Source: a phage
Sequence record: NC_130088.1
Length of the DNA: 49,713 nucleotides
Reading direction: 5' to 3' (one strand)
Position 1 is the stretch's first letter, and every line of letters starts with the position of its first letter. The notes under the pieces are model-generated. The model made no database searches. It was not told where the DNA came from and was given only the letters and a program-made list of their open reading frames with translations. This document shows, piece after piece, positions 18 through 49,713 of the stretch. The translations under genes and the position numbers were made by a program.

Positions 18-40
18 ACCCGCCTTGCGCGGGTTTTTTT
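18..40 (+). terminator. Rho-independent terminator-like hairpin (ACCCGCC..GCGCGGG) plus T-run
   Basis: GC-rich dyad followed by TTTTTTT; near-identical hairpin recurs at 16233-16257. Confidence 0.55.
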
Positions 41-26687: not shown

Positions 26688-27296
26688 TTAGCAATCAGTG
26701 CTATCGACGGAAATCACAACGCGTTTCTTCTGATTGGCTTCCTTTGCTTTGCGCCGTTCTTCTTTCGCCTTATCGCGTTCAGCTTTGCGCCGCGCTTTCT
26801 CCTTCTCGCGTTCTTCTGGACTCATAGACCGCAACGGATCGTAAGGCCGCACAAATCCTCTTGCTTCCGCCTCCTCTTTGGTTACAAATCGCATCAGCTT
26901 TCTGTTGCTGCAACGATTCTCTAATGGCTTGCCGTTATTATCAAATTTGATATCTGGACGGCAATATGAAGCGCGGAAGCCGTTAAAACCTTTGCGTCTG
27001 TAATCTTTCTGGATCAGTTCAGCGCCTTTAGTTGAAATCATGCCGCGCTCTTTCCATCCCCATACTGTTTTAAGGTTAACGCCAATTTCACGCGCCAGGG
27101 CAGCGCAACCGCCATAAGCGCTAACCACTTCATCAAGCCTAGCTTTTAATCCTGCCCTTACTTCTTCCTTTAGTACCAGATAACCGCTAACAGGTGCGCG
27201 GCGCTTCCTGTCTTTACCACGCCTTACGCCGTTGTTACCATTGATTGTGCGTTTGTCGATTTCTCCCGTTGAGGCCGCAATTTTGATTTCGCTCAT
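26688..27296 (-). CDS. HTH DNA-binding protein with basic Lys/Arg/Glu-rich C-terminal tail
   Basis: HTH-like segment GGCAALAREIGVNLKTVWGW; AGGTGA SD; divergent from helicase gene. Confidence 0.45.
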   Translation of the reverse strand: MSEIKIAASTGEIDKRTINGNNGVRRGKDRKRRAPVSGYLVLKEEVRAGLKARLDEVVSAYGGCAALAREIGVNLKTVWGWKERGMISTKGAELIQKDYRRKGFNGFRASYCRPDIKFDNNGKPLENRCSNRKLMRFVTKEEAEARGFVRPYDPLRSMSPEEREKEKARRKAERDKAKEERRKAKEANQKKRVVISVDSTDC

Positions 27297-27307
27297 ATTT
27301 TCACCTA

Positions 27308-27349
27308 TAGCACTTTTTGCTAAAACTATTGAGTAAGTTTGTGTATGAT
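27308..27349 (+). promoter_or_regulatory. Conserved 19-bp box plus TATGAT (class-2 unit) upstream of helicase
   Basis: TAGCACTTTTTGCTAAAAC, 21-nt gap, TATGAT. Confidence 0.5.
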
Positions 27350-27384
27350 ATGGTGCAAATGGCATTTAGTCAAAAGGATAAGTA

Positions 27385-40020: not shown

Positions 40021-40051
40021 CGTTAATCTCCTGATTGGTTTCGATGGGGTA

Positions 40052-40094
40052 ATTATATCAAGATACCCCGATCCGGTTTTAACAAAAAATGCTA
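40052..40094 (-). promoter_or_regulatory. Conserved 19-bp box plus TATAAT inside a hairpin loop (class-2 unit, minus strand)
   Basis: GGGGTA..TACCCC stem around the -10. Confidence 0.5.
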
Positions 40095-40095
40095 T

Positions 40096-40530
40096 TTACA
40101 GCCATTCGCCGGAAACAATGAAATCAGTGAAATCGTCATGATCCAAAATGCTGTGATAGCCAGTGCAATAATCATTTTTAACCATGTTACCACGCAAACG
40201 CACATAATCATCCTTTCGATCCGTAATCCAACGAATAAAGCGAGCGTTACGTTGTGGTATCGTTCCGGCGTAAGCCTCTTTGAATCCAATGTGTGCGATG
40301 AATGCCACAAAGCGGATTTGCAAGCCTGGATTGTCTTTCTTTGCCTCGTTAACCAGGTCGCGGAAGTTTTCACGCGTTGGCTTTACCGGAACCAATTCGC
40401 CTAACTCGATCATGCGGTTGAAGTCTGAAATGCTGGAATATGATTGCATAAACAGCCCATCGCTACCAAACATCACAACTCCGTTTTCGATGAAGTAAGT
40501 TTGTCCGTTGTATTTGTTTGTGTATTTCAT
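40096..40530 (-). CDS. Hypothetical protein
   Basis: 144 aa from internal ATG with GAGG SD. Confidence 0.45.
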   Translation of the reverse strand: MKYTNKYNGQTYFIENGVVMFGSDGLFMQSYSSISDFNRMIELGELVPVKPTRENFRDLVNEAKKDNPGLQIRFVAFIAHIGFKEAYAGTIPQRNARFIRWITDRKDDYVRLRGNMVKNDYCTGYHSILDHDDFTDFIVSGEWL

Positions 40531-40561: not shown

Positions 40562-40604
40562 ATCATAGCAATTCGTGACTGATTGGTTTTAACAAAAAGT
40601 GCTA
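40562..40604 (-). promoter_or_regulatory. Conserved 19-bp box plus TATGAT (class-2 unit, minus strand), first unit of the leftward operon
   Basis: Box/gap/-10, CATCGAAAC leader. Confidence 0.5.
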
Positions 40605-40613
40605 TTCATGCAG

Positions 40614-40643
40614 TAGACCGATTGGTCTAGACCGTTTGGTCTA
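40614..40643. promoter_or_regulatory. Operator-like composite palindrome TAGACC-gatt-GGTCTAGACC-gttt-GGTCTA
   Basis: Three GGTCTA half-sites in alternating orientation; a fourth GGTCTA at about 41086. Confidence 0.4.
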
Positions 40644-40700
40644 ATGAACGCATCGTTTTGTGTATCGAACGCATTCATGATCCTGTTACGTGATCGTTAT

Positions 40701-40781
40701 ATGATCAGATGATGATTGATGTGTGAGATTTTGTGATTGAAATTGATTTGATTTGATTAGATTTGAGTAGTGAGTGAGTAG
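40701..40781. repeat. Iteron-like array of short direct repeats (GATT / TGATTGA / GTGAGT units) in AT-rich DNA
   Basis: Direct reading; no ORF. Confidence 0.5.
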
Positions 40782-41247
40782 AAATAATCACACCTTGCCG
40801 ATCAGTGAAAACTTTTCCCGCAAAACATCACTCCAGGCTACGCGCTGTTATCTTCCGTTCATGGGTGTTCACAAATCTATCCGGCGTAGTTCTCCGACGG
40901 TTCTATGTGTTAGCCACACAAAAAGAACAAAATAAAACTCTATATAATAATAATTAAAACAGTAAGTTATCTATATATATGTATTTATTTGTTTCTATAC
41001 TGTTTCTAATGTTCCATATGGTTAGTGGTGGGTGATATATTGTTGATGGTGGTATTTGGTTAATATTTAGCCTATTGCGCCTGGTCTAGTGGTGGATTGA
41101 GAAAAATATATTTATATATAGGAATCCGCGAAAATTCATGAACGTATGAACAGCCAAAGAACGCGTTTTCAATTTCAAGTAAAACATTCACTTACGCTGA
41201 AAATTTGTTCCACTATAGGTATGGAACGTAAGCACACAAAAAACTAC

Positions 41248-41276
41248 TTGACGAGAACAAATGGCGGCGATAATAT
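41248..41276 (+). promoter_or_regulatory. Sigma70-like promoter TTGACG-17-TAATAT (early promoter B)
   Basis: Hexamers read directly; leader and SD paralogous to promoter A. Confidence 0.65.
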
Positions 41277-41312
41277 GCCACAACGAACTAACCAACAGGA
41301 GGATAACCAATC

Positions 41313-41762
41313 ATGGCAACTACCAAAGAGTTTTGCGACAGCTTGCGTGAACTGGCGAAGAAGTTAGCAAGCGGAGAGCTTGATAATTACATCATTGCCG
41401 ATGCTCTTATCGAGGACAATCTCGACGAGCAAGACCGGAAGAAGGTCAACGCCTCATACATTCGCACGATCATGAATCGCGTCCCTGACGTGAAGGAGAT
41501 CGGAACGGTTTCAATTACTCGCACTGATCCGGTTGAGGAAGCGCCAGGGTTTAAGGTGGCAATCAACCGCGAGGCAAAGCGACAGGTATTCACAAAAAAT
41601 GATATTCCTGCACTGGAAAAGCGGATCGGTGAGCGAATCGCCAAGCGACTGCTAAACACAATGCCAAATATCACGGATCTGGAAGGTGAACAACTCCAGG
41701 GCGCGGCAATAGGAATTAAACGTTATCAGGATCTGATTAAGTCATTTGCAACGGGGGAATAA
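41313..41762 (+). CDS. Hypothetical protein
   Basis: 149 aa, SD AGGAGG. Confidence 0.5.
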   Translation: MATTKEFCDSLRELAKKLASGELDNYIIADALIEDNLDEQDRKKVNASYIRTIMNRVPDVKEIGTVSITRTDPVEEAPGFKVAINREAKRQVFTKNDIPALEKRIGERIAKRLLNTMPNITDLEGEQLQGAAIGIKRYQDLIKSFATGE

Positions 41763-41765
41763 ACC

Positions 41766-42014
41766 ATGAATTACGAAACCAAGGAAAATATTGCAAAGGT
41801 AATTATTGGCTCATTGGGTAAAGTTGAGCTAACCCAAAAGCAATGGGAGGAAATACAGGAAATTCACCGTAACATGATCTCGCCGCGAATCATCGTTAGA
41901 TCGAAAGGCAATGAGTTTAAATATGTTGCTGGTTCGCCAGCACTTAAAACGACAGTTAACGTGCTACTCAATAGCGGTGAAGAATTCGAAGTTGTCAAGG
42001 AGCGCGTAGATTGA
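41766..42014 (+). CDS. Hypothetical protein
   Basis: 82 aa. Confidence 0.45.
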   Translation: MNYETKENIAKVIIGSLGKVELTQKQWEEIQEIHRNMISPRIIVRSKGNEFKYVAGSPALKTTVNVLLNSGEEFEVVKERVD

Positions 42015-42110
42015 AAGCATTCGCCTTTGTCGCTGCAATGTGGTGTGTTGTTATTGATAGTACTGGCGTGGCGCTGGTTGTGTTAGGTCTGATTTTGTTG
42101 GGGGTGTTTG

Positions 42111-42224
42111 ATGAATAAGAAACTTTTAGATCATGCCGTGGTGTTCTTTATCGCTGCTGCTGGATTTTCGCTGTTGTCAATTGCTTTTTCAATCCTTGCT
42201 TTTGCCGTGTCAATGCTGAAATGA
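42111..42224 (+). CDS. Tiny hydrophobic peptide (37 aa, single predicted TM helix; below ORF-track cutoff)
   Basis: GGGGTG SD; hand-translated MNKKLLDHAVVFFIAAAGFSLLSIAFSILAFAVSMLK. Confidence 0.3.
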   Translation: MNKKLLDHAVVFFIAAAGFSLLSIAFSILAFAVSMLK

Positions 42225-42247
42225 CGGATTACATCCTGATTGGTAAA

Positions 42248-42290
42248 TAGCACTTTTTGTTAAAACTCAATTGGGGTGGTTTGGCATAAT
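42248..42290 (+). promoter_or_regulatory. Conserved 19-bp box plus CATAAT (class-2 unit)
   Basis: Box/gap/-10, CATCGAAAC leader. Confidence 0.5.
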
Positions 42291-42321
42291 TACCCCATCG
42301 AAACGAAACGAGGAAAACACA

Positions 42322-42480
42322 ATGACTACATTAATCACCTGGGAACACGAAGCAAGCCAGCCAGTAACCCGCGAGTTTGAAACTCTTAGCCAGGCTTATC
42401 TGCTGGCTGCTAACGGTGGTTATTACAAGGCGCAAGTCATTGATGAAATTGGGGTGATTGTTTATGAGTTTAAAGCGTGA
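42322..42480 (+). CDS. Small hypothetical protein
   Basis: 52 aa from ATG after GAGG SD. Confidence 0.35.
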   Translation: MTTLITWEHEASQPVTREFETLSQAYLLAANGGYYKAQVIDEIGVIVYEFKA

Positions 42481-42664
42481 TGTGGCCTACCAGAGTGCAT
42501 ACGGTACGCGCCAATACAAATGGGACGGCGTGAACGTTTGGACTCGCGGATTCCCTGGAGAGATCTGGAAGCAAGCAATTGGCTGGCCTCAACCGAACAT
42601 GACAAAAAATGATTTGGAATACTACGTTAACAAGGGTGAATTTAAGGAGTGTGAAAATGTTTGA
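42464..42664 (+). CDS. Hypothetical protein
   Basis: Overlapping start with upstream gene. Confidence 0.35.
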   Translation: MSLKRDVAYQSAYGTRQYKWDGVNVWTRGFPGEIWKQAIGWPQPNMTKNDLEYYVNKGEFKECENV

Positions 42665-42926
42665 ACTGAAACGCGTAACTGTTGAGATCCTGAATGATGG
42701 CTCTTACGATAGAATGAAACACTTAACCTTCCCGATCCGCATTGAGAATTGCATTGATTACGGTATTGAAGTTGGCATGGTTGACGTTCCTCTTGATGCA
42801 CTTATCGCGGCTGGCTATGACAAAGAGAAGGCCAATGTGCTGATATACCTGATAGCTATGAAAGCGACACACATTTTCCGTTCACCTATGGTGAATGCCG
42901 GATTGTTGATTGAGGTTATAAAATGA
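42657..42926 (+). CDS. Hypothetical protein
   Basis: 89 aa, SD AGGAGTG. Confidence 0.4.
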   Translation: MFELKRVTVEILNDGSYDRMKHLTFPIRIENCIDYGIEVGMVDVPLDALIAAGYDKEKANVLIYLIAMKATHIFRSPMVNAGLLIEVIK

Positions 42927-42987
42927 GCAGTTGGCACAATGAACATGTAATGCAATTCTACCGCCACAGAATAAAGAAAATGATCAA

Positions 42988-43030
42988 TAGCACGAATTGC
43001 TAAAACTAAATCATGGGCATTTGTTATAGT
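42988..43030 (+). promoter_or_regulatory. Conserved box (GAATTGC variant) plus TATAGT inside a hairpin (class-2 unit)
   Basis: GGGCA..TGCCC stem around the -10. Confidence 0.5.
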
Positions 43031-43064
43031 GCCCATCGTTGAGTTAAGCAAAGGAGAATCAACA

Positions 43065-43637
43065 ATGTTAAAAGCGAATGAAATCAACTTCCCGATCATC
43101 TTTAATTTTCCTGCTGATTATACAATGAAGAACATAACATTCGAAAATGATTCAGGCAATGGCACCTGGGCCAATGGGAATAAAAGCGGATTGCCGCTAT
43201 CATATTTCATTAAACAGCATAATGCTCAAAACCCATACAACACAGAGGGTAAGCCATATTTTTACAAAATGGCGGCAAAGAAAGAGAAAAAGCGAGAAGA
43301 TAACGATCTGTTAGATGCGCTGAAATATTTAAATATCAGGACTGGCCATGTTAATTTAAACGGTGCTGTATTTACTGCGTCAGTCGGATCTAAAGATTAC
43401 GATTACATTTGCAAGGTTGAAAATATGCCAGTTGGCGCAGCGCTTTTAGGTGTTCAGCGTGAAAGTGGCGAATGGGACGAGTTGAAATTTAAACCTCGCC
43501 GCATTGAAGTACACGACGATGTTATTTGCTTGCTTTCCGGTTATTCTGGAGGTTACAAGAGCGGCAATAATTACGGCGCTGAAATCAACATTAAGCGCGG
43601 CACTAACGTAAAAATCAAAAACAGCACGAATTGCTAA
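43065..43637 (+). CDS. Hypothetical protein ending NSTNC
   Basis: 190 aa, SD AAAGGAG; C-terminus encoded by the conserved box. Confidence 0.5.
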   Translation: MLKANEINFPIIFNFPADYTMKNITFENDSGNGTWANGNKSGLPLSYFIKQHNAQNPYNTEGKPYFYKMAAKKEKKREDNDLLDALKYLNIRTGHVNLNGAVFTASVGSKDYDYICKVENMPVGAALLGVQRESGEWDELKFKPRRIEVHDDVICLLSGYSGGYKSGNNYGAEINIKRGTNVKIKNSTNC

Positions 43638-43664
43638 AACAGAATTTTGGGCTTGCGGTATAGT
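43622..43664 (+). promoter_or_regulatory. Conserved box (GAATTGC variant) plus TATAGT (class-2 unit)
   Basis: Box/gap/-10. Confidence 0.5.
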
Positions 43665-43696
43665 AAGCCCATACCAAACAACGAGAGGATCACAAA

Positions 43697-44023
43697 ATGG
43701 AATTAGCACGTAACGCGGTTTATGGCTTACACCTTAAAGGCGGCAAAGGCTCAACTTATGCGCACCTTTTTCATGTTAACGAGCGTGGTCAGATGGATAT
43801 CGCAATGTTTGTTGACCAAAGGGTTAAGAAAGGTGGTGAGGGTGATTGTGATACATTCCGACCGGATTTAGTTGAATACGATCACACATACAGTCATGAT
43901 CACTGGATTGGTCACGGTCGCAAGTTTGTAATGGTTAATAGCCACGTTACCGACACAAGCAAAATCACTGCATCGCAGTATAAGCGCATGGCTCGCAAGG
44001 TTATGAAGTTAGAAGCGCAATAG
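43697..44023 (+). CDS. Hypothetical protein
   Basis: 108 aa, SD GAGAGGA. Confidence 0.45.
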   Translation: MELARNAVYGLHLKGGKGSTYAHLFHVNERGQMDIAMFVDQRVKKGGEGDCDTFRPDLVEYDHTYSHDHWIGHGRKFVMVNSHVTDTSKITASQYKRMARKVMKLEAQ

Positions 44024-44063
44024 CACGAAATGTTAAGCGGCCATGTGTGCTGATTGGTACAAT
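44021..44063 (+). promoter_or_regulatory. Degenerate conserved box plus TACAAT (class-2 unit)
   Basis: TAGCACGAAATGTTAAG, 22-nt gap, TACAAT. Confidence 0.4.
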
Positions 44064-44095
44064 GACCGCATCAACCAACAATAGAGGATAGAAAA

Positions 44096-44203
44096 ATGTC
44101 AAAAGAATCAATTAAGCAGTTTCTGAAATACGGCTCTATGATTGTGCTCGCTACCGTTGTGCTGGCTGGCATAGCTTACAGTGTCATCGAATTTGTGGGG
44201 TAA
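44096..44203 (+). CDS. Tiny membrane peptide (35 aa; below ORF-track cutoff)
   Basis: SD AGAGGA; hydrophobic core MIVLATVVLAGIAY. Confidence 0.35.
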   Translation: MSKESIKQFLKYGSMIVLATVVLAGIAYSVIEFVG

Positions 44204-44206
44204 TGG

Positions 44207-44749
44207 ATGTTTAAGATCGAATTGTGGGGGAAGGAATACGCTAATCACTACGTTGCAACAAAACAGCGTTTCGTGATTTTCGACCTGGATGGCACATTGT
44301 CAAATGGTGAGCACCGCTTGCACCTGTTGCCAACGGTTGATTTGCATCTTACTGAAAGCTGGAGTGAGTTTAATCGCGCCGCAAAGGATGATTCACCATT
44401 CATGGATAACATTTCCGTGTGCAACGCCATGTTTGACGCAGGATACCTGGTTATCATCCTAACTGGTCGAAGCGATGAAGTCGAAACGGAAACGCGATCA
44501 TGGTTGGCTGAAAACGGCGTTTCTTTCGATTGGCTGATTATGCGCCGCTCAAGCGATAATCGGAAAGATACCGTAATCAAAGAGGAAGTTTTACGGACTA
44601 TCGGCCTGGAGAATATCGTTGCGTGTTGGGATGACTCGCCAAACGTTATTGCGCACTTGCGCGGCATGGGATTGACTGTTTACCAGGTTATTGACTACGG
44701 CGACCAGTTGCACGATCACTTAAAGTCTCACGGAGTTGAAAAGCTATGA
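44207..44749 (+). CDS. HAD-superfamily phosphatase (possible polynucleotide 3'-phosphatase or nucleotidase)
   Basis: HAD motif I FDLDGT, motif II ILTGRS, motif IV WDDSPN. Confidence 0.7.
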   Translation: MFKIELWGKEYANHYVATKQRFVIFDLDGTLSNGEHRLHLLPTVDLHLTESWSEFNRAAKDDSPFMDNISVCNAMFDAGYLVIILTGRSDEVETETRSWLAENGVSFDWLIMRRSSDNRKDTVIKEEVLRTIGLENIVACWDDSPNVIAHLRGMGLTVYQVIDYGDQLHDHLKSHGVEKL

Positions 44750-44922
44750 AACTAAAATGCATCGGTGAATATCCAGGTTTTACGGTTGGCAACATGTACA
44801 ATGCAACAATCGGAATGGATCACACATTTTGTTATGAATGCTATGTTGTCATTGATGATGATGGTGATTCACGTAGCATTGATTTCGAAACAGAGGATTT
44901 TATAGAGGATCGTTATCTGTGA
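44746..44922 (+). CDS. Small hypothetical protein (58 aa; below ORF-track cutoff)
   Basis: ATGA coupling to upstream gene; acidic C-terminal half. Confidence 0.3.
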   Translation: MKLKCIGEYPGFTVGNMYNATIGMDHTFCYECYVVIDDDGDSRSIDFETEDFIEDRYL

Positions 44923-45019
44923 TTGAAAACTATGATCCAATGGCGTTTGCCTGGGGCGTTGGTGCTTTCGTGGTGGCGGTTGTGATTTGCTTATGGGATA
45001 TAAACCGGATGGATAGATA

Positions 45020-45205
45020 ATGCTTACTGCTTTTTTAATTTTGATTGTCATTATGCTTTACGTTTGCGGCGCTTTCCTGATGCGAGCGCTACTAAAAGAG
45101 GCTGACGCTGATGATAAGGATAGTTGGAAGCCGATTATTTTATGGCCTGGATATATCATCGTGCCGATTTACGAACTAATCCGCGATGGTGAGTTTAAGT
45201 GGTAA
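45020..45205 (+). CDS. Small membrane protein
   Basis: 61 aa, N-terminal TM helix. Confidence 0.4.
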   Translation: MLTAFLILIVIMLYVCGAFLMRALLKEADADDKDSWKPIILWPGYIIVPIYELIRDGEFKW

Positions 45206-45206
45206 A

Positions 45207-45249
45207 TAGCACTTTTTGCTAAAACTTGCTAAGGCACATTTGATAAAGT
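45207..45249 (+). promoter_or_regulatory. Conserved 19-bp box plus TAAAGT inside a hairpin (class-2 unit)
   Basis: GGCACA..TGTGCC stem. Confidence 0.5.
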
Positions 45250-45282
45250 GTGCCTTGTCGAGACAAGCAAGGAGAATGACAC

Positions 45283-45579
45283 ATGAAAGTTTTTATGATT
45301 AAACAGTTTGGAAGCACTGCATATTATATCATCAACGACGAGGGAGATATTTTCATTTCGAACTATCCGACTCTTGAAGTTGGGCGTCATTTCAGAAGTT
45401 CAGTTGACGAAAAAGGAATTATCAATATGGTTGAGTGTGGAATGATGGTTCCCTTCAATAAAGAAGCGGCTGAATTATTCCAGCAATCACAGATCCGAAA
45501 GCGCAACCGCAATATTATTTGCTTTACCGTCGCAATGGTTGTAACTGTTGGCTCAATCTTACTTGGAGTGTGGGCGTGA
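45283..45579 (+). CDS. Hypothetical protein with C-terminal TM segment
   Basis: 98 aa, SD AAGGAG. Confidence 0.45.
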   Translation: MKVFMIKQFGSTAYYIINDEGDIFISNYPTLEVGRHFRSSVDEKGIINMVECGMMVPFNKEAAELFQQSQIRKRNRNIICFTVAMVVTVGSILLGVWA

Positions 45580-45761
45580 TGAATCTTGATAATAAAGTTG
45601 AAACGCAAAAGACGATTGATTATCTGCGTGACCTTGCCGACAAGCTGGAGAATAACCAGATTCATTTAAATGAGATCGTTATTGAATCGCGCAACGTTTG
45701 TTGGAACGTTGAAGAAGAAACATTGACAATGCAAGTTTTAAAGGCGGTAGACAATGGCTAA
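45579..45761 (+). CDS. Hypothetical protein
   Basis: 60 aa from ATG overlapping upstream stop. Confidence 0.35.
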   Translation: MNLDNKVETQKTIDYLRDLADKLENNQIHLNEIVIESRNVCWNVEEETLTMQVLKAVDNG

Positions 45762-46329
45762 AATTATCATCCTTAACGCGCCTCCAGGTGCTGGTAAAGA
45801 CACAATCGGCAAGATGATTTCTTTCTATTCGCCTGGTGAGCAATGCCGCATCATTAGCTTTAAAGAGCCAATGTTTGACATTGCATTAGCTATCCTGGGC
45901 AAAGAGAACTATAAGCGCTTCATGTTGGCTTATGATGACAGAGAGCAGAAAGAAAGGCCGCAAACATTCCTGATGGGTATGTCACCGCGTGAGTTCATGA
46001 TCTGGATTAGCGAGGATGTAATCAAACCTAAATTCGGCAAGGATTATTTCGGCGTAAGGTTTAACCAGAAAGTAAAAGAGTGTGATGCTCCTGTTGTTTG
46101 CACTGATGGTGGTTTTCCAGATGAAATTATCGCTCTAATCAATGCTGGTAATGAGGTTAAGCTATGTCGATTGCATCGCGACGGGTTCACGTTTGCAGGT
46201 GATAGCCGCAACTACATTCGAATCAATCCATATTACCAGAAAAACGGATATAGTGAGCACGATTATAAATTGGTTGATAAGCAACCGAATGTAACTGTAA
46301 AGGAAATTATTAGCGATCACCTTAAATAG
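45754..46329 (+). CDS. P-loop nucleotide kinase (dNMP-kinase-like)
   Basis: Walker A PPGAGKDT near N-terminus; size about 190 aa. Confidence 0.55.
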   Translation: MAKIIILNAPPGAGKDTIGKMISFYSPGEQCRIISFKEPMFDIALAILGKENYKRFMLAYDDREQKERPQTFLMGMSPREFMIWISEDVIKPKFGKDYFGVRFNQKVKECDAPVVCTDGGFPDEIIALINAGNEVKLCRLHRDGFTFAGDSRNYIRINPYYQKNGYSEHDYKLVDKQPNVTVKEIISDHLK

Positions 46330-46369
46330 CACGAATTGCTAAAACTTGCGCAAGGCCATTTGTTATAGT
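46327..46369 (+). promoter_or_regulatory. Conserved box (GAATTGC variant) plus TATAGT inside a hairpin (class-2 unit)
   Basis: GGCC..GGCC stem around the -10. Confidence 0.5.
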
Positions 46370-46409
46370 GGCCTTATTCAAGAGAAGCAACCAATCAGAG
46401 GAATAAGCG

Positions 46410-46607
46410 ATGAAAATCAAATGCACAAAATCAAACACCCTGAATCTGACAGTTGGCGCGATTTACCACATGGAAGAAGGTGTAAACGGGTTTAGCCCAA
46501 CTGTAACGCATGAATACGGCGGTCACTTCTTCTTAAACGGTAAAGACGGATTATCTGTAAACGTTGGCTCTTTCGTACTTGCAGAATTTGAGATCGTGGA
46601 GGAATAA
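46410..46607 (+). CDS. Hypothetical protein
   Basis: 65 aa, SD AGAGGA. Confidence 0.4.
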   Translation: MKIKCTKSNTLNLTVGAIYHMEEGVNGFSPTVTHEYGGHFFLNGKDGLSVNVGSFVLAEFEIVEE

Positions 46608-46609
46608 AA

Positions 46610-46774
46610 ATGTTCTGGATTCATTCGCCGCAAGGGTTGCTTTATGTGCCTGGAGTTGAATTAGAAGAACGACGCGACGGCGACACGGTAAACATCATAA
46701 CGAAGGATTCAAAAGGCCACACTCTTAAAACGTATGTTTTTAACACTCCGGTTAAGGTCGAAAAAGATGATTAG
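46610..46774 (+). CDS. Small hypothetical protein (54 aa; below ORF-track cutoff)
   Basis: SD GGAGGA. Confidence 0.35.
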   Translation: MFWIHSPQGLLYVPGVELEERRDGDTVNIITKDSKGHTLKTYVFNTPVKVEKDD

Positions 46775-46949
46775 ATTTATTGGTTTTGTGGCATTGCTTA
46801 TGTGCGGAATATTGCTTACTGACAATGACACTTGGCAAAGCGCTGTTGGCGGTTTACTTATTTTTCTTGCTGGTGGCATGGTTGGCAGTGATGACGCAGC
46901 AAACAAGAATAAACTTTCCGATCATTTACGCAGAGAGACAAAACGATGA
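46767..46949 (+). CDS. Small membrane protein
   Basis: 60 aa with two hydrophobic segments. Confidence 0.35.
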   Translation: MIRFIGFVALLMCGILLTDNDTWQSAVGGLLIFLAGGMVGSDDAANKNKLSDHLRRETKR

Positions 46950-47191
46950 ATAGAAAAATGCTGGTACGCGCATTCGCGAAGATTGCTAAAAGATGGGGTG
47001 ATTCAGCTAAAACACCTTACACGTTTAGTATGTACGGTTACAAGAATGCTCGCGCATGGGGTCGCATCATTGCAGATAACTATGAATCCGAAATGCTGGA
47101 TGCTTACGCAAGCTGGATTGATACGCCGCTAAATGAATGGGGCCAGGCTGAATATGATTGTTTTGCTGATGAAGAAATTTCTTGTTGGTAA
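46946..47191 (+). CDS. Hypothetical protein
   Basis: 81 aa. Confidence 0.4.
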   Translation: MNRKMLVRAFAKIAKRWGDSAKTPYTFSMYGYKNARAWGRIIADNYESEMLDAYASWIDTPLNEWGQAEYDCFADEEISCW

Positions 47192-47203
47192 GGAGAACAA
47201 AAT

Positions 47204-47701
47204 ATGAAAGCTAAAAATGATTTTTATAACTACCTGACAAAAGGCCGTGACTATACCGTTTTGAATAGCATAGATACTCTTTACCTGGTTGTTGCTGATA
47301 ATGGCGTTAGAGTTTGGCTTGATAAAACTCTTTTCGAAAGCGAGCACCTAAGTAACGCAAAGCGGATCGCAGATGAAGCAAGCGCATTAGCAGAGCGTGA
47401 ACGAATTCGCGATATAGTAGCGGAGCAGGTTAGAAATTCATGTTCACCTGGTGGCGATATCTTCAAATCAATGCGCGGTGAAATGACGGTTGGAATTCAA
47501 GATCGCGTAATTTCAAAGTCAGTTGATTCTGTAATTGAGAATGCGCGATTCAATGCGTTGATTAACTCAGAGCATAACGAATACGTCAAAGTATTAGAGC
47601 AACTGCGTGAAGTGCTGCGAGTGCCGGAAGGTGAAAATATAGTGACTCATGCAAAGGTTGTAAGAGCGTTGGCTGATGCGCTGATTGGCCTGCAAAAATA
47701 G
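47204..47701 (+). CDS. Hypothetical protein
   Basis: 165 aa, SD AAGGAG. Confidence 0.5.
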   Translation: MKAKNDFYNYLTKGRDYTVLNSIDTLYLVVADNGVRVWLDKTLFESEHLSNAKRIADEASALAERERIRDIVAEQVRNSCSPGGDIFKSMRGEMTVGIQDRVISKSVDSVIENARFNALINSEHNEYVKVLEQLREVLRVPEGENIVTHAKVVRALADALIGLQK

Positions 47702-47741
47702 CACTTTTTGTTAAAACTTCCGCGAGGGCATTTGTTAAAGT
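47699..47741 (+). promoter_or_regulatory. Conserved 19-bp box plus TAAAGT inside a hairpin (class-2 unit)
   Basis: Box starts at the TAG stop of the upstream gene. Confidence 0.5.
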
Positions 47742-47774
47742 GTCCTCATTGAAGCGAAACATGGAGATTACGAA

Positions 47775-47978
47775 ATGGCTGTATACACTGGCAAGATGTT
47801 TGAATGTCACAATCCGATTTACGGCGGCAACTATGAGCTAATCATTGATGATGATCGCGTTATTCTTGCTGATGATGACGCTGAAGAATATCACGAGGTT
47901 GTAGCGGATAAGTACGATAATGACGTTATGATCTTGGCAGGAAACAACCGCATCAAGTTTTACGCAGTGGAGGAATAA
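47775..47978 (+). CDS. Hypothetical protein
   Basis: 67 aa. Confidence 0.4.
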   Translation: MAVYTGKMFECHNPIYGGNYELIIDDDRVILADDDAEEYHEVVADKYDNDVMILAGNNRIKFYAVEE

Positions 47979-47981
47979 CAG

Positions 47982-48233
47982 ATGATCGCAATCAACCTAT
48001 CAGAAGAACAAGCGAAATCGTTGCTAAATAGCCTGGGATGGCGTTATGGCTCGGGTGAATATGAGCGATTGGATGTTAAAAGCGATGTTGCAAAAGAGGT
48101 TTTCATCCAGCTTGAGCAGCAATTAATGCCACGCTCAACAAGTGCGGCAGAGTTGGCAGTGTGGCGGCACGAAAACGGATTGAACGAAATGGATGTTGAA
48201 AAGTGGAAGCGTAAAAACGAGGTGTTAGCATGA
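47982..48233 (+). CDS. Hypothetical protein
   Basis: 83 aa, SD GGAGGA. Confidence 0.4.
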   Translation: MIAINLSEEQAKSLLNSLGWRYGSGEYERLDVKSDVAKEVFIQLEQQLMPRSTSAAELAVWRHENGLNEMDVEKWKRKNEVLA

Positions 48234-48556
48234 TTTACATTCACTCTTACGGCGTTGGCAAGTTTGGCAGAAAGCAGATCAGAAACATTCACGACACGTT
48301 AGAAGAAGCGCAAGCACAGCAACGCGTTTTAGGTGGAGTTGTTCAGGCTTTCGAACCAGTGGAAGATCTGGAAATGCAAGAGGCCATAAAGGAAATCGTT
48401 GTTGATGAAGTTTCATGTATAATCGACGAATTGAGCACTGACGCGCCAGGGTTCGCAAGAACATTTGAACCAGGCTCAACAGAATGGGATTGCTGGAAGG
48501 TGAAAACCTTAAACAACATTCGAGCAATCTTGGATGGAAAATTTAACGAAAATTGA
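48230..48556 (+). CDS. Hypothetical protein
   Basis: 108 aa. Confidence 0.4.
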   Translation: MIYIHSYGVGKFGRKQIRNIHDTLEEAQAQQRVLGGVVQAFEPVEDLEMQEAIKEIVVDEVSCIIDELSTDAPGFARTFEPGSTEWDCWKVKTLNNIRAILDGKFNEN

Positions 48557-48569
48557 TAGCTCAAATAGC

Positions 48570-48600
48570 GCCTCAATCGCATTATAAGAGGCGCATTTTT
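48570..48600 (+). terminator. Terminator hairpin (AGCGCCTC..GAGGCGC plus T6)
   Basis: Dyad plus T-run. Confidence 0.55.
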
Positions 48601-48615
48601 TAGGAAGGTGATTCT

Positions 48616-48744
48616 ATGCCTGAATACATAAAACCGTCGCAGTGGTGCGCACAGAAGCAAGAAGAAGCATTAGAGCGCGGCGACACTGACACAGCATTGC
48701 ACTACTTTGAAATGTTTCAACTTTGGAAATCAAGAGGACTTTAA
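48616..48744 (+). CDS. Small hypothetical protein (42 aa; below ORF-track cutoff)
   Basis: SD GGAAGGTG. Confidence 0.3.
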   Translation: MPEYIKPSQWCAQKQEEALERGDTDTALHYFEMFQLWKSRGL

Positions 48745-48745
48745 A

Positions 48746-48973
48746 ATGTTTGGACTTAATGAGGCTGAATACAACATTGTTAAACGCGCTGCAAAAGAGT
48801 GCATGAAGGATCTGAAAGTTGAAGTTACGAGCGGCAACAAATACGATCATATTGCGGCTGGCATTATCACCAAACATCACACGCCAATTTCTACCTTAAT
48901 CACTCGCACAAAGTTTGTATGGCTTGCTGGTTATATAGCTGGTCGATGGGGTAAGCCTGGCGAGTACGAATAA
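48746..48973 (+). CDS. Hypothetical protein
   Basis: 75 aa, SD AGAGGA. Confidence 0.4.
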   Translation: MFGLNEAEYNIVKRAAKECMKDLKVEVTSGNKYDHIAAGIITKHHTPISTLITRTKFVWLAGYIAGRWGKPGEYE

Positions 48974-49155
48974 TAAGCACTTGAATCAATGAAGGTTGAC
49001 GGCGTGTTGTATGATTGGTAGATTAAACGCCGTGAACATAAGAGGCTCAATAGAGCAAAGCGCGGCGCGTTAGCCGTAAAACTAAATCGGATTGGATCGC
49101 AAGGCGAATGACAATCGCGGGAACCGTAACCCGCAACCATTCAGGAGAATTCACA

Positions 49156-49317
49156 ATGCAAAACAAAGAAATCGCAAAGGTAACTATCATCGTCGAGCGT
49201 GACGGAAAGAAAACGCGATACAAGAAGCGATTTAAACAAGGCGAGGCGGTATTAGGCCGGATCGGTGATTTCATGGTGAAATTGCAAGAGGATAAGCCGG
49301 ATGGTATTCAAAGTTAA
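49156..49317 (+). CDS. Small hypothetical protein
   Basis: 53 aa from ATG after CAGGAG SD. Confidence 0.35.
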   Translation: MQNKEIAKVTIIVERDGKKTRYKKRFKQGEAVLGRIGDFMVKLQEDKPDGIQS

Positions 49318-49483
49318 GTTAACTATCAGGCGCATGGGTCGTAATTGCGGATCATGTAAACAAGATTTCGAATGCGAGGTTGCAGCATTTGACGAACATC
49401 ACGCCGTCAACCTTGCAAAGCGTTTATCTGGTGCTAACCCTGAAACGCACCAATTTTCAATCAACTATGTGAGGGCTATATAA
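49301..49483 (+). CDS. Small Cys-containing hypothetical protein (start uncertain)
   Basis: 60 aa with CGSC..C cluster. Confidence 0.3.
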   Translation: MVFKVKLTIRRMGRNCGSCKQDFECEVAAFDEHHAVNLAKRLSGANPETHQFSINYVRAI

Positions 49484-49713
49484 TGCTGATGTTCATTGCG
49501 GGTTTTGGTTTTTGTGCGATTATCTGTTTCTTTCTTTATCTTTGTGTTTCGTGGGGTGTGCAGCGTTGCGTAAAAGACAACGAATTAGTGATCGCCATTT
49601 ACGAAAACAAAACTGATAAATGGAAGATTACTAAAAACTTTGAAAAGATTGCTGATGAAATTGCATTTCGTCGCAAGTTTGGCAAGCCTGGAAGCATCAA
49701 GTATATTGATTGA
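49483..49713 (+). CDS. Small membrane protein (N-terminal TM helix)
   Basis: 76 aa; ends at the last base of the window. Confidence 0.4.
   Translation: MLMFIAGFGFCAIICFFLYLCVSWGVQRCVKDNELVIAIYENKTDKWKITKNFEKIADEIAFRRKFGKPGSIKYID

Follow-up and report, generated by a model that had tools for sequence, protein, structure and literature searches.

Small coupled genes and marbox-like repeat units in the pac-proximal arm of Citrobacter phage Devorator

What does a phage gain from a long run of small genes with almost no recognisable function, and how are such genes expressed? The question is raised by the right arm (positions 41313-49713, 8.4 kb) of sequence record NC_130088.1, here called the window, which is the whole stretch of 49,713 nt that was analysed. 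An earlier, sequence-only reading of this DNA had seen an 8-kb arm of about 28 tightly coupled small genes punctuated by nine intergenic units, in a location and architecture that it took as typical of host-takeover and anti-defence genes. The window is 100% identical to Citrobacter phage vB_CfrD_Devorator (OL539461.1; Drexlerviridae, Tempevirinae, Tlsvirus), and the arm corresponds to gp58-gp86 of that record, window coordinates being record coordinates + 7. It is orthologous to gp01-gp28 of phage TLS and to ST77-ST55 of phage T1, which likewise are small rightward genes running from the pac-containing intergenic region to terS. The arm as such is thus not new: it is a known feature of T1-like phages, already sequenced. 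Gene order, 21-nt repeats, the pnk and dmk genes and the placement between pac and terS are shared with the TLS and T1 left-end regions (PMC11447400); what differs is the cassette content, Devorator having variants of gp59, gp64, gp69 and gp71 and lacking gp87 of phage Stevie.

T1 and TLS break down host DNA and reuse its nucleotides, the early functions responsible being unidentified (PMC11447400). In the 2024 re-annotation of TLS by German et al. (PMC11447400) the genes of this region are all hypothetical, except for a 'polynucleotide kinase' and a 'deoxynucleotide kinase'; how the host is shut off, how its DNA is degraded and what the 21-nt repeat does are listed as open questions. The functions and the repeat are left unexplained there, and neither a hairpin nor a match to the marbox is mentioned. 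Two points appear not to have been described before, namely that the repeat matches the marbox consensus and that the -10 elements of the arm lie inside a covarying hairpin.

Our reading, which we regard as probable, is that a T1/TLS-like phage carries here, next to pac, an accessory ('hyperplastic') arm of early/middle genes. Host sigma-70 RNA polymerase would read it rightwards, starting at a canonical promoter named P01 and at six or seven promoters of the repeat-box type, which lack a -35 and would use an extended -10 located 18 nt past a marbox-like 21-bp box; one extra -35/-10 promoter would serve gp84, and transcription would end at two T-run terminators. About nine translationally coupled sub-operons would be set apart by hairpins that enclose the -10 of the next promoter. 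The HAD phosphatase and the kinase encoded in the arm would process nucleotides or nucleic-acid ends, most likely in the salvage of host-DNA breakdown products, with RNA repair after nuclease attack as a possible alternative. About 20 small soluble proteins, several of them strongly acidic, would most probably bind host proteins in takeover, counter-defence or inter-phage competition, and related phages would exchange the cassettes at gene junctions and repeat units.

The repeat box and its match to the marbox

The 21-bp box is present in 21 copies in the window (16284-47717), against 0.37 expected by chance, for example at 42246, 42986, 45205, 46325 and 47697 on the plus strand and between 34282 and 40606 on the minus strand. 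Each copy, whether in the window, TLS or T1, is followed at a distance of exactly 18 nt by a TAnnnT hexamer, often with TG at -15/-14, and no -35 is present. The same boxes stand before replication and recombination genes and not before structural genes.

The site bound by MarA, SoxS and Rob is 5'-gcannwwntgnnaaa-3', and in class II promoters it lies in forward orientation with its centre at -36 to -55 (Trigg et al.; PMC12052159, PMC8811837); the RamA site at micF is centred near -41 (PMC12052159, PMC8811837). Both subtypes of the phage box fit this consensus perfectly (GCAct-TT-t-TG-tt-AAA and GCAcg-AA-t-TG-ct-AAA). There are 22 perfect marbox matches in the window, against 1.8 +/- 1.5 in shuffled sequences, 19 in TLS and 20 in T1; six of the arm units carry one. 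Placing the transcription start 7 nt after the hexamer, the marbox core spans -47 to -33 with its centre at -40 and faces the -10, so that the arm boxes have both the sequence and, on this inferred start site, the geometry of class II marboxes. Class II host promoters such as micF and lpxC P2, which respond to MarA, SoxS, Rob or RamA, similarly have a perfect forward box centred at about -40; the phage differs from them in that each genome has about 19 near-identical copies, an extended -10 replaces the -35, and a hairpin surrounds this -10. In the searchable papers the marbox is nowhere paired with T1 or Drexlerviridae, which is not proof of novelty. An analogy with MotA boxes was discarded on spacing (about 20 nt and not 12), as was a reading of the box as an UP element, whose position would be shifted and whose match is less specific than that of the marbox.

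We tentatively propose, as a possibility short of a probability, that the box is a consensus class II marbox that would wire about 19 promoters per genome to the stress regulators Rob, MarA, SoxS or RamA of the host; the covarying -10 hairpins would then insulate cassettes of ORFans, and of the 20 or so small proteins several would be inhibitors of the host not known before. A rather unlikely alternative is that the box is the site of a phage-encoded regulator, or that box and hairpin together form a nut-like RNA element read from P01, the -10-like loop not being a promoter. The box is indeed far more uniform than host marboxes and its conservation runs past the marbox core. Moreover, a gene for a regulator with a helix-turn-helix (HTH) domain at 26688-27365 (minus strand) is flanked by two boxes (26705, minus strand; 27306, plus strand), and the -35/-10 search of German et al. 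yielded only three sigma-70 promoters (PMC11447400). Against the alternative, however, the TAnnnT hexamer stays 18 nt from the box also in units that lack a hairpin or have it in another place, TG is frequent at -15/-14, and both box subtypes are perfect marboxes in class II position and orientation. The units also stand 50-76 nt before start codons on both strands, as promoters do. The gene at 26688-27365, labelled 'transcriptional regulator', corresponds to TLS gp57 and T1 ST23, and its Cro/YdaS-like HTH match (PF15943, 24.9 bits) is weak and below the cutoff; its product is the other candidate ligand of the box.

Hairpins and promoter units between the genes

The nine intergenic units of the sequence-only reading were borne out: exactly nine gaps in the arm exceed 40 nt and each holds a stable hairpin, with folding energies of -13 to -18 kcal/mol and z scores of -2.2 to -6.2. 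Seven units carry the 21-bp box (six strong copies and a degenerate one at 44019), one is a T-run terminator and one a -35/-10 promoter. In the arms flanking pac, a hairpin of 9-12 bp surrounds the extended -10; in the arm studied here the two halves of the stem (unit positions 28-36 and 43-51) flank and partly include the -10. Such hairpin-embedded -10 elements were located on the plus strand at 42267-42303, 43007-43043, 43641-43677, 45226-45262, 46346-46382, 47718-47754 and 48990-49045, with a further one at 40045-40096 on the minus strand; in T1 they were found at 1449, 3534, 4343, 4863 and 47118 (minus strand). Outside the arm the unit has instead a hairpin between box and hexamer, or a T-run terminator.

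The units can be described in order, all on the plus strand. Unit 1 (42246..42297, -13.8 kcal/mol) has a perfect marbox core at 42250-42264, a -10 CATAAT at 42285-42290 and the stem TGGGGTG/TACCCCA. In unit 2 (42986..43037, -13.8 kcal/mol, z -4.2) the -10 TATAGT at 43025-43030 accompanies the hairpin ATGGGC/GCCCAT, while unit 3 (43620..43671, -15.8 kcal/mol), whose repeat/marbox overlies the stop codon of gp66, combines TATAGT at 43659-43664 with a hairpin TGGGCTT/AAGCCCA in a register shifted by 2. Unit 4 (44019..44070, -15.0 kcal/mol) is the degenerate copy, with three mismatches in the repeat, an extended -10 TGGTACAAT and an imperfect stem of 8 bp, GCGGCCAT/ATGACCGC; a recombination breakpoint often falls here. 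Unit 5 (45205..45256, -17.7 kcal/mol, z -6.2) has a -10 TAAAGT at 45244-45249 and a 12-bp hairpin AAGGCAC.../...GTGCCTT. Unit 6 (46325..46376, -13.2 kcal/mol) carries TATAGT at 46364-46369 and AAGGCC/GGCCTT, and unit 7 (47697..47748, -14.6 kcal/mol) TAAAGT at 47736-47741 and GAGGGC/GTCCTC, with one G.T pair; like units 2, 3, 5 and 6 it contains the repeat/marbox. Unit 8 (48568..48601, -13.2 kcal/mol) is an intrinsic terminator (as its counterpart is annotated in Stevie), GCGCCTC-N13-GAGGCGC and then T6, with a truncated repeat (AAATAGC) upstream and a -10-like ATTATAA in its loop. Unit 9 (48996..49040, -16.9 kcal/mol, z -4.4) has no repeat box and is a promoter-like site TTGACG-17-TAGATT with TG (48996-49024), its -10 lying within the hairpin ACGGCGT/ACGCCGT. 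P01 (41248..41276), a sigma-70 promoter-like TTGACG-17-TAATAT before gp58 that equals P01 of TLS (PMC11447400, Table S1), has no stable hairpin (-4.9 kcal/mol, z -0.9).

Evidence that the stem is maintained comes from covariation among 57 distinct arm units of 13 phages. Compensatory changes occur at all six core pairs, and pairing is seen in 69.6% of the cells, compared with 53% after shuffling (0/500) and 42-54% in slid controls; double-sided changes number 75 versus 33. The stem covaries among paralogous as well as orthologous units. Orthologous units thus differ by double changes, as in ATGGGC/GCCCAT, AGGGGC/GCCCCT and GTGGGT/ACCCAC. The main stem register has 13 G.T pairs and no A.C pair, which suggests a structure formed by the sense strand only, as RNA or non-template DNA. 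The same count disfavours a symmetric DNA cruciform, and it also speaks for the RNA element considered above, since it implies that only the sense strand folds, as an RNA would.

The closest known analogue is found in the cassette regions of T4-type phages built on early promoters with stem-loops (PeSL), which occupy the hyperplastic regions of these phages (Arbiol et al. 2010, PMC2839356; Comeau et al. 2014, PMC4122927). Here as there, small non-essential open reading frames (ORFs) without known function are preceded by a repeated early promoter and stem-loop, the stem-loop lies between, over or beside the promoter hexamers, and near-identical phages differ in gene content. The arm thus shares the repeated promoter and stem-loop before small ORFs in a variable region but not the -35/-10 promoter type: PeSL units have a consensus -35/-10 and an AT-rich upstream region, whereas seven arm units have the 21-bp box and no -35, only unit 9 and P01 carrying TTGACG. 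The two also differ in that nucleotide homology between Devorator and its relatives breaks almost always at gene junctions, with only about 9 of about 70 breakpoints inside repeat units; the units are therefore weakly supported as the main sites of recombination.

Genes and products of the arm

With corrected starts, the coding sequences of the record and three unannotated ORFs give 31 plus-strand genes (28 annotated), of 26 to about 190 aa (median 67), at a coding density of 91%. Fourteen of the 30 junctions overlap, six in the ATGA manner (including TTGA and GTGA), four by 8 nt, three by 1 nt (TAATG/TGATG) and one by 17 nt, and a further seven have gaps of 0-12 nt; the description of the arm as some 28 coupled small genes was thus well founded. 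Shine-Dalgarno sites and coupled stops and starts were seen across the arm. PHROG families cover 29 of the 31 genes, the Stp-family ORF described below being recognised through Pfam. No significant paralogy inside the arm was found by all-against-all BLAST, and Rfam and tRNA scans returned no RNA gene.

Are these ORFs genes at all? It is very improbable that many of them are artefacts or decaying remnants, a non-functional filler between pac and terS. Such a view could draw on doubtful calls (gp62, the ORF at 44919, over-extended starts) and on the lack of a database function for most products. It is countered by the coding density, the Shine-Dalgarno sites, the coupling, the PHROG families and selection: pooled pairwise ratios of non-synonymous to synonymous substitution rates (dN/dS) against relatives lie between 0.04 and 0.34 for every plus-strand ORF with usable orthologues (these were absent for gp65, gp66 and gp67), including those of 26 and 35 aa. 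Because of these ratios, we take the small ORFs to be real genes. Only gp62 on the minus strand (42131-42253), with a dN/dS of 0.62 on 13 substitutions, is probably a spurious annotation. The annotated starts of gp63 (42271), gp66 (43029), gp72 (45519), gp83 (48707) and gp84 (49108) intrude on promoter units or upstream genes and are probably over-extended, downstream ATGs with Shine-Dalgarno sites fitting better.

The clearest link to anti-defence is an unannotated ORF of 26 aa (42923..43003, plus strand), which overlaps gp65 by ATGA and matches PF08133 (anticodon nuclease activator) with 35 bits against a cutoff of 25 (E 1.2e-8). Thirteen of its N-terminal 18 residues are identical to T4 Stp, including all of residues 5-14, its dN/dS is 0.05, and tblastn with it led to stp in hundreds of T-even phages. 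RefSeq annotates stp in TLS and Stevie; it is missing from OL539461.1, and in phage Bas11 (MZ501085) an 88%-identical Stp ORF is labelled hypothetical. The AntiDefenseFinder sheet of the BASEL collection has no entry for Bas01-Bas30, the ORF of Bas11 included, nor for any of the 13 Drexlerviridae of that collection. The targets of T4 Stp are type IC restriction enzymes (EcoprrI, EcoR124I), whose inhibition also sets off PrrC; loss-of-function mutations of Stp cluster in residues 4-14, and its last 8 residues are dispensable (PMC3014915). The peptide of Devorator agrees with T4 Stp in length, in PF08133 and in residues 5-14, and differs in its C-terminal 8 residues, which are unrelated and here dictated by the overlapping repeat box: the last 6 codons of the ORF are the box, which encodes the 'NSTNC*' with which Stp and gp66 both end. 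The box likewise gives stop codons to gp73 and gp78. By this homology the peptide would be an inhibitor of type IC restriction, and as a homologue of T4 Stp it speaks directly for an anti-defence function encoded in the arm. A complete T4-like circuit of tRNA repair (Stp, Pnk and ligase) was discarded, as T4 has the Pnk kinase domain and RNA ligase 1 and Devorator has neither: gp68 has no kinase domain and TLS-type genomes have no RNA ligase.

The named Pfam matches in the arm are the HAD_PNKP domain of gp68, four DUFs and PF08133 for the Stp-family ORF; PHROGs gave functional names only to gp68 ('polynucleotide kinase') and gp73 ('dNMP kinase', for deoxynucleoside monophosphates), and NCBIfam and PADLOC, run on all products, added nothing. 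A phmmer search of the concatenated arm polyprotein against all solved structures matched only Pnkp phosphatase domains. gp68 (180 aa, 44207..44749, plus strand; PF25109 E 4e-19, phrog_415, 57% identity to T1) has a DLDGT sequence at residues 26-30 and aligns with the phosphatase domains of PDB 4xrp (Pnkp1), 5uj0 and 1ltq, T4 Pnk being among the enzymes matched; it has the DxDxT motif and the PNKP phosphatase model of a Pnkp-type HAD 3'-phosphatase. A bifunctional T4-type Pnkp was rejected, as only the phosphatase part aligns (1ltq residues 190-297) within the 180 aa, and the label 'polynucleotide kinase' overstates gp68 because the kinase domain is absent. gp73 (191 aa, 45754..46329, plus strand; phrog_139 E 8e-48, 50% identity to T1) ends at the TAG of the repeat box of unit 6 and is P-loop NMP-kinase-like; its profile reached guanylate and adenylate kinases in the PDB at P-loop level only (E > 0.01), and no Pfam or NCBIfam model matched it. 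This kinase family occurs in 1450 phage records, often adjoining the HAD gene, and the pair may be a split polynucleotide kinase-phosphatase instead of a dNMP kinase and a phosphatase. In unrelated phages (Klebsiella Webervirus, the podoviruses ECBP5 and Pm5460), the kinase gene is found directly beside an HAD 'Pnk' gene.

This pair bears on a second view of the arm, in our opinion unlikely, that it serves above all as a module for supplying nucleotides and assisting replication, with the small ORFs accessory to DNA metabolism. The phosphatase and kinase are its best conserved members, their genes adjoin in many unrelated phages, T1 and TLS recycle host nucleotides, and the KanT1 paper takes the two kinase genes likewise. 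The module would, however, explain only two of the 31 genes, would have to accommodate eight membrane peptides and one anti-restriction peptide, and would show a gene turnover atypically high for metabolic modules.

Peptides of 33-98 aa that cross the membrane once or twice make up eight of the 31 products, which suggests a third view, quite unlikely to our mind, that the arm encodes chiefly membrane-acting factors of superinfection exclusion or inter-phage competition and not inhibitors of immunity. T1-like phages do encode exclusion proteins such as Cor (PMC13164509), and T4 stp adjoins small membrane genes such as ac. Yet homologues of Cor, Llp, Imm or Sp were not found, PADLOC gave no match, and the known exclusion genes of Drexlerviridae stand beside receptor-binding genes, not here (PMC13164509, PMC8594841).

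Structure prediction and a fold search had been proposed with the sequence-only reading. Run on gp66 and gp78, AlphaFold modelling gave generic SH3-like barrels and no functional match: gp66 (190 aa, two domains, 31% identity to T1, 43065..43637, plus strand), whose annotated GTG start at 43029 sits in a -10, is predicted to have a C-terminal SH3/KOW-like barrel, and gp78 (165 aa, 47204..47701, plus strand; pLDDT 63) an N-terminal SH3-like barrel and then helices. The label 'GntR regulator' of gp78 was rejected, as no Pfam, NCBIfam or PDB profile match and no such model stand behind it. Profile searches of the PDB were made with alignments of 35-51 sequences for gp66, gp78 and gp73, and those for gp66 and gp78 returned nothing useful. 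Besides Stp, no known anti-defence protein was found by sequence (Pfam, PHROGs, NCBIfam, PDB) or by fold (gp66, gp78). The earlier statement that only the HAD phosphatase and the kinase carry a recognisable motif therefore stands across Pfam, PHROGs, NCBIfam, PADLOC and the PDB, except for the Stp-family ORF that it had missed. The literature offered no usable transcriptomes of T1-like phages and no usable papers on the four DUF families.

The other genes, all on the plus strand, follow one another as below. The arm opens with gp58 (149 aa, DUF7174, 41313..41762; dN/dS 0.06), found as 98%, ~40% and ~31% alleles among relatives, and gp59 (82 aa, 41766..42014), a rare accessory gene found among relatives in TLS only. 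Two peptides assigned to the membrane by hydrophobicity come next, gp60 (35 aa, TTG start and TTGA overlap, phrog_22353, 42011..42118) and gp61 (37 aa, 42111..42224). Past unit 1 stand gp63 (52 aa, DUF7170, 42322..42480), for which ATG 42322 is likelier than the annotated TTG inside the promoter unit; gp64 (60 aa, 42482..42664), a rare accessory gene found in one relative; and gp65 (89 aa, no assigned function, 42657..42926). The His-rich gp67 (108 aa, 43697..44023), between units 3 and 4, has 65-77% or ~30% alleles among relatives. Unit 4 precedes an unannotated membrane peptide of 35 aa (44096..44203) that equals TLS gp08 (phrog_17726 E 2e-27; 91-100% identity at 9 loci; dN/dS 0.04). After gp68 lie gp69 (58 aa, net charge -9, 44746..44922), a rare accessory gene, and the weakest gene call of the arm, an unannotated possible membrane peptide of 33 aa with a GTG start (44919..45020; 2 loci, dN/dS 0.27 on few sites) and without PHROG or Pfam match, then the membrane protein gp70 (61 aa, 45020..45205). 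Unit 5 is followed by gp71 (98 aa, C-terminal transmembrane anchor, 45283..45579), present in about half of the relatives, and the acidic gp72 (60 aa, 45579..45761), whose annotated TTG start is unlikely.

Downstream of unit 6, a coupled block (46410..47191) comprises gp74 (65 aa, 46410-46607), gp75 (54 aa, 46610-46774), the 60-aa transmembrane gp76 (46767-46949) and gp77 (81 aa, 46946-47191), the last kept out to T1. Another coupled block after unit 7 (47775..48556) comprises gp79 (67 aa, net charge -11, 47775-47978), gp80 (DUF7180, 47982-48233) and the acidic gp81 (108 aa, 48230-48556); the strongly acidic products of the arm are gp69, gp72, gp79 and gp81. Between units 8 and 9 lie gp82 (42 aa, 48616-48744) and gp83 (75 aa, phrog_303, 48746-48973), which is kept out to T1 and had zero non-synonymous changes in 3 comparisons. 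The arm closes with gp84 (annotated 49108-49317, kept out to T1), whose true start is probably ATG 49156, giving 53 aa, where homology to Stevie and TLS resumes, gp85 (60 aa, 49301-49483, kept out to T1) and the 76-aa transmembrane gp86 (DUF7299, 49483-49713).

The window is rotated by 7 nt relative to OL539461.1 (49712 nt, against 49713 nt in the window), so that gp86 ends at the last base of the window and its terminator stands at the window start. This terminator (19..40, plus strand; CCCGC-CTTGC-GCGGG then T7, equal to T28 of TLS) is 18 nt past gp86 on the circular map and divides the arm from terS and the late genes; a late promoter-like TTTAGC-N17-TATAAT lies at ~50-73. At the other end, an AT-rich divergent intergenic region of 746 bp (40567-41312) separates leftward from rightward early genes. 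It holds a palindrome at 40604-40653 (GGTCTAGACC repeats) and GATTTGA-type short repeats near 40740-40770, and it also contains the pac site and genome start of TLS, whose coordinate 1 aligns with window 40726. This region is a candidate pac site and/or origin.

Plasticity of the arm and its place in phage biology

Gene content was compared among relatives whose terL is 97-100% identical. gp59, gp64, gp69 and the ORF at 44919 are found in only one or two relatives, gp63 and gp71 in about half, and gp58 and gp67 are replaced by 30-40% alleles in some. The HAD phosphatase, the kinase, gp66, gp77 and gp83-85 are kept out to T1 and look like core functions.

How far, then, does the reading as a host-takeover and anti-defence region hold? 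It is favoured by the homology of Stp, by the plasticity of this accessory region and by a promoter type held in common with replication and recombination genes, while no other product matches a known anti-defence or takeover protein. The 'typical location' is a presumption: the terminal redundancy of TLS and T1 takes in only the pac-adjacent 1-2.8 kb of the arm, the terminal repeat annotated in T1 covering the first 2.8 kb of the block. An anti-defence or takeover role is plausible for the other small proteins and unlikely for the conserved core of HAD phosphatase and kinase. The class I region of T7 and the pre-early region of T5 similarly have small early genes near a genome end that are read by host polymerase and include an anti-restriction function. 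They differ in that homologues of Ocr, A1/A2 and Dmp and a phage RNA polymerase were not detected in the arm (family libraries, PDB), and stepwise DNA entry is not known for T1-like phages.

Several observations weigh against the model of an early/middle accessory arm that we prefer. An anti-defence homologue was found for only one of 31 products, AntiDefenseFinder is empty for the 13 BASEL Drexlerviridae, and most Drexlerviridae are reported to be very restriction-sensitive (PMC8594841). The absence of the Pnk kinase domain and of RNA ligase leaves the Stp/PrrC/tRNA-repair circuit incomplete compared with T4, and about one third of the arm is conserved to T1, unlike typical arms-race genes. 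As to expression, the timing is inferred from promoter type and position; the hairpins have no U-tracts, a T-run being present only in unit 8, so that termination by them is putative; and the box shows stronger conservation than marboxes of the host and may instead have a phage protein as its ligand.

Among coliphages, and as contaminants in the laboratory, T1-like phages rank with the most common, and host shut-off, host-DNA degradation and gene timing in them are listed as open (PMC11447400); the arm is the likeliest place for the genes of these functions, and its small size would allow systematic deletion. The overlooked Stp gene indicates that even known inhibitors escape present anti-defence annotation in this phage family. 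The punctuating units, and not the genes, gave the result that is most interesting and most open to test. Their hairpin-embedded -10 elements extend the idea of the mobile promoter cassette past T4-type phages, and the marbox reading offers a concrete, testable hypothesis for the repeat that organises early transcription across the whole family. If it is true, phage expression would be coupled to bile, antibiotic or oxidative signals.

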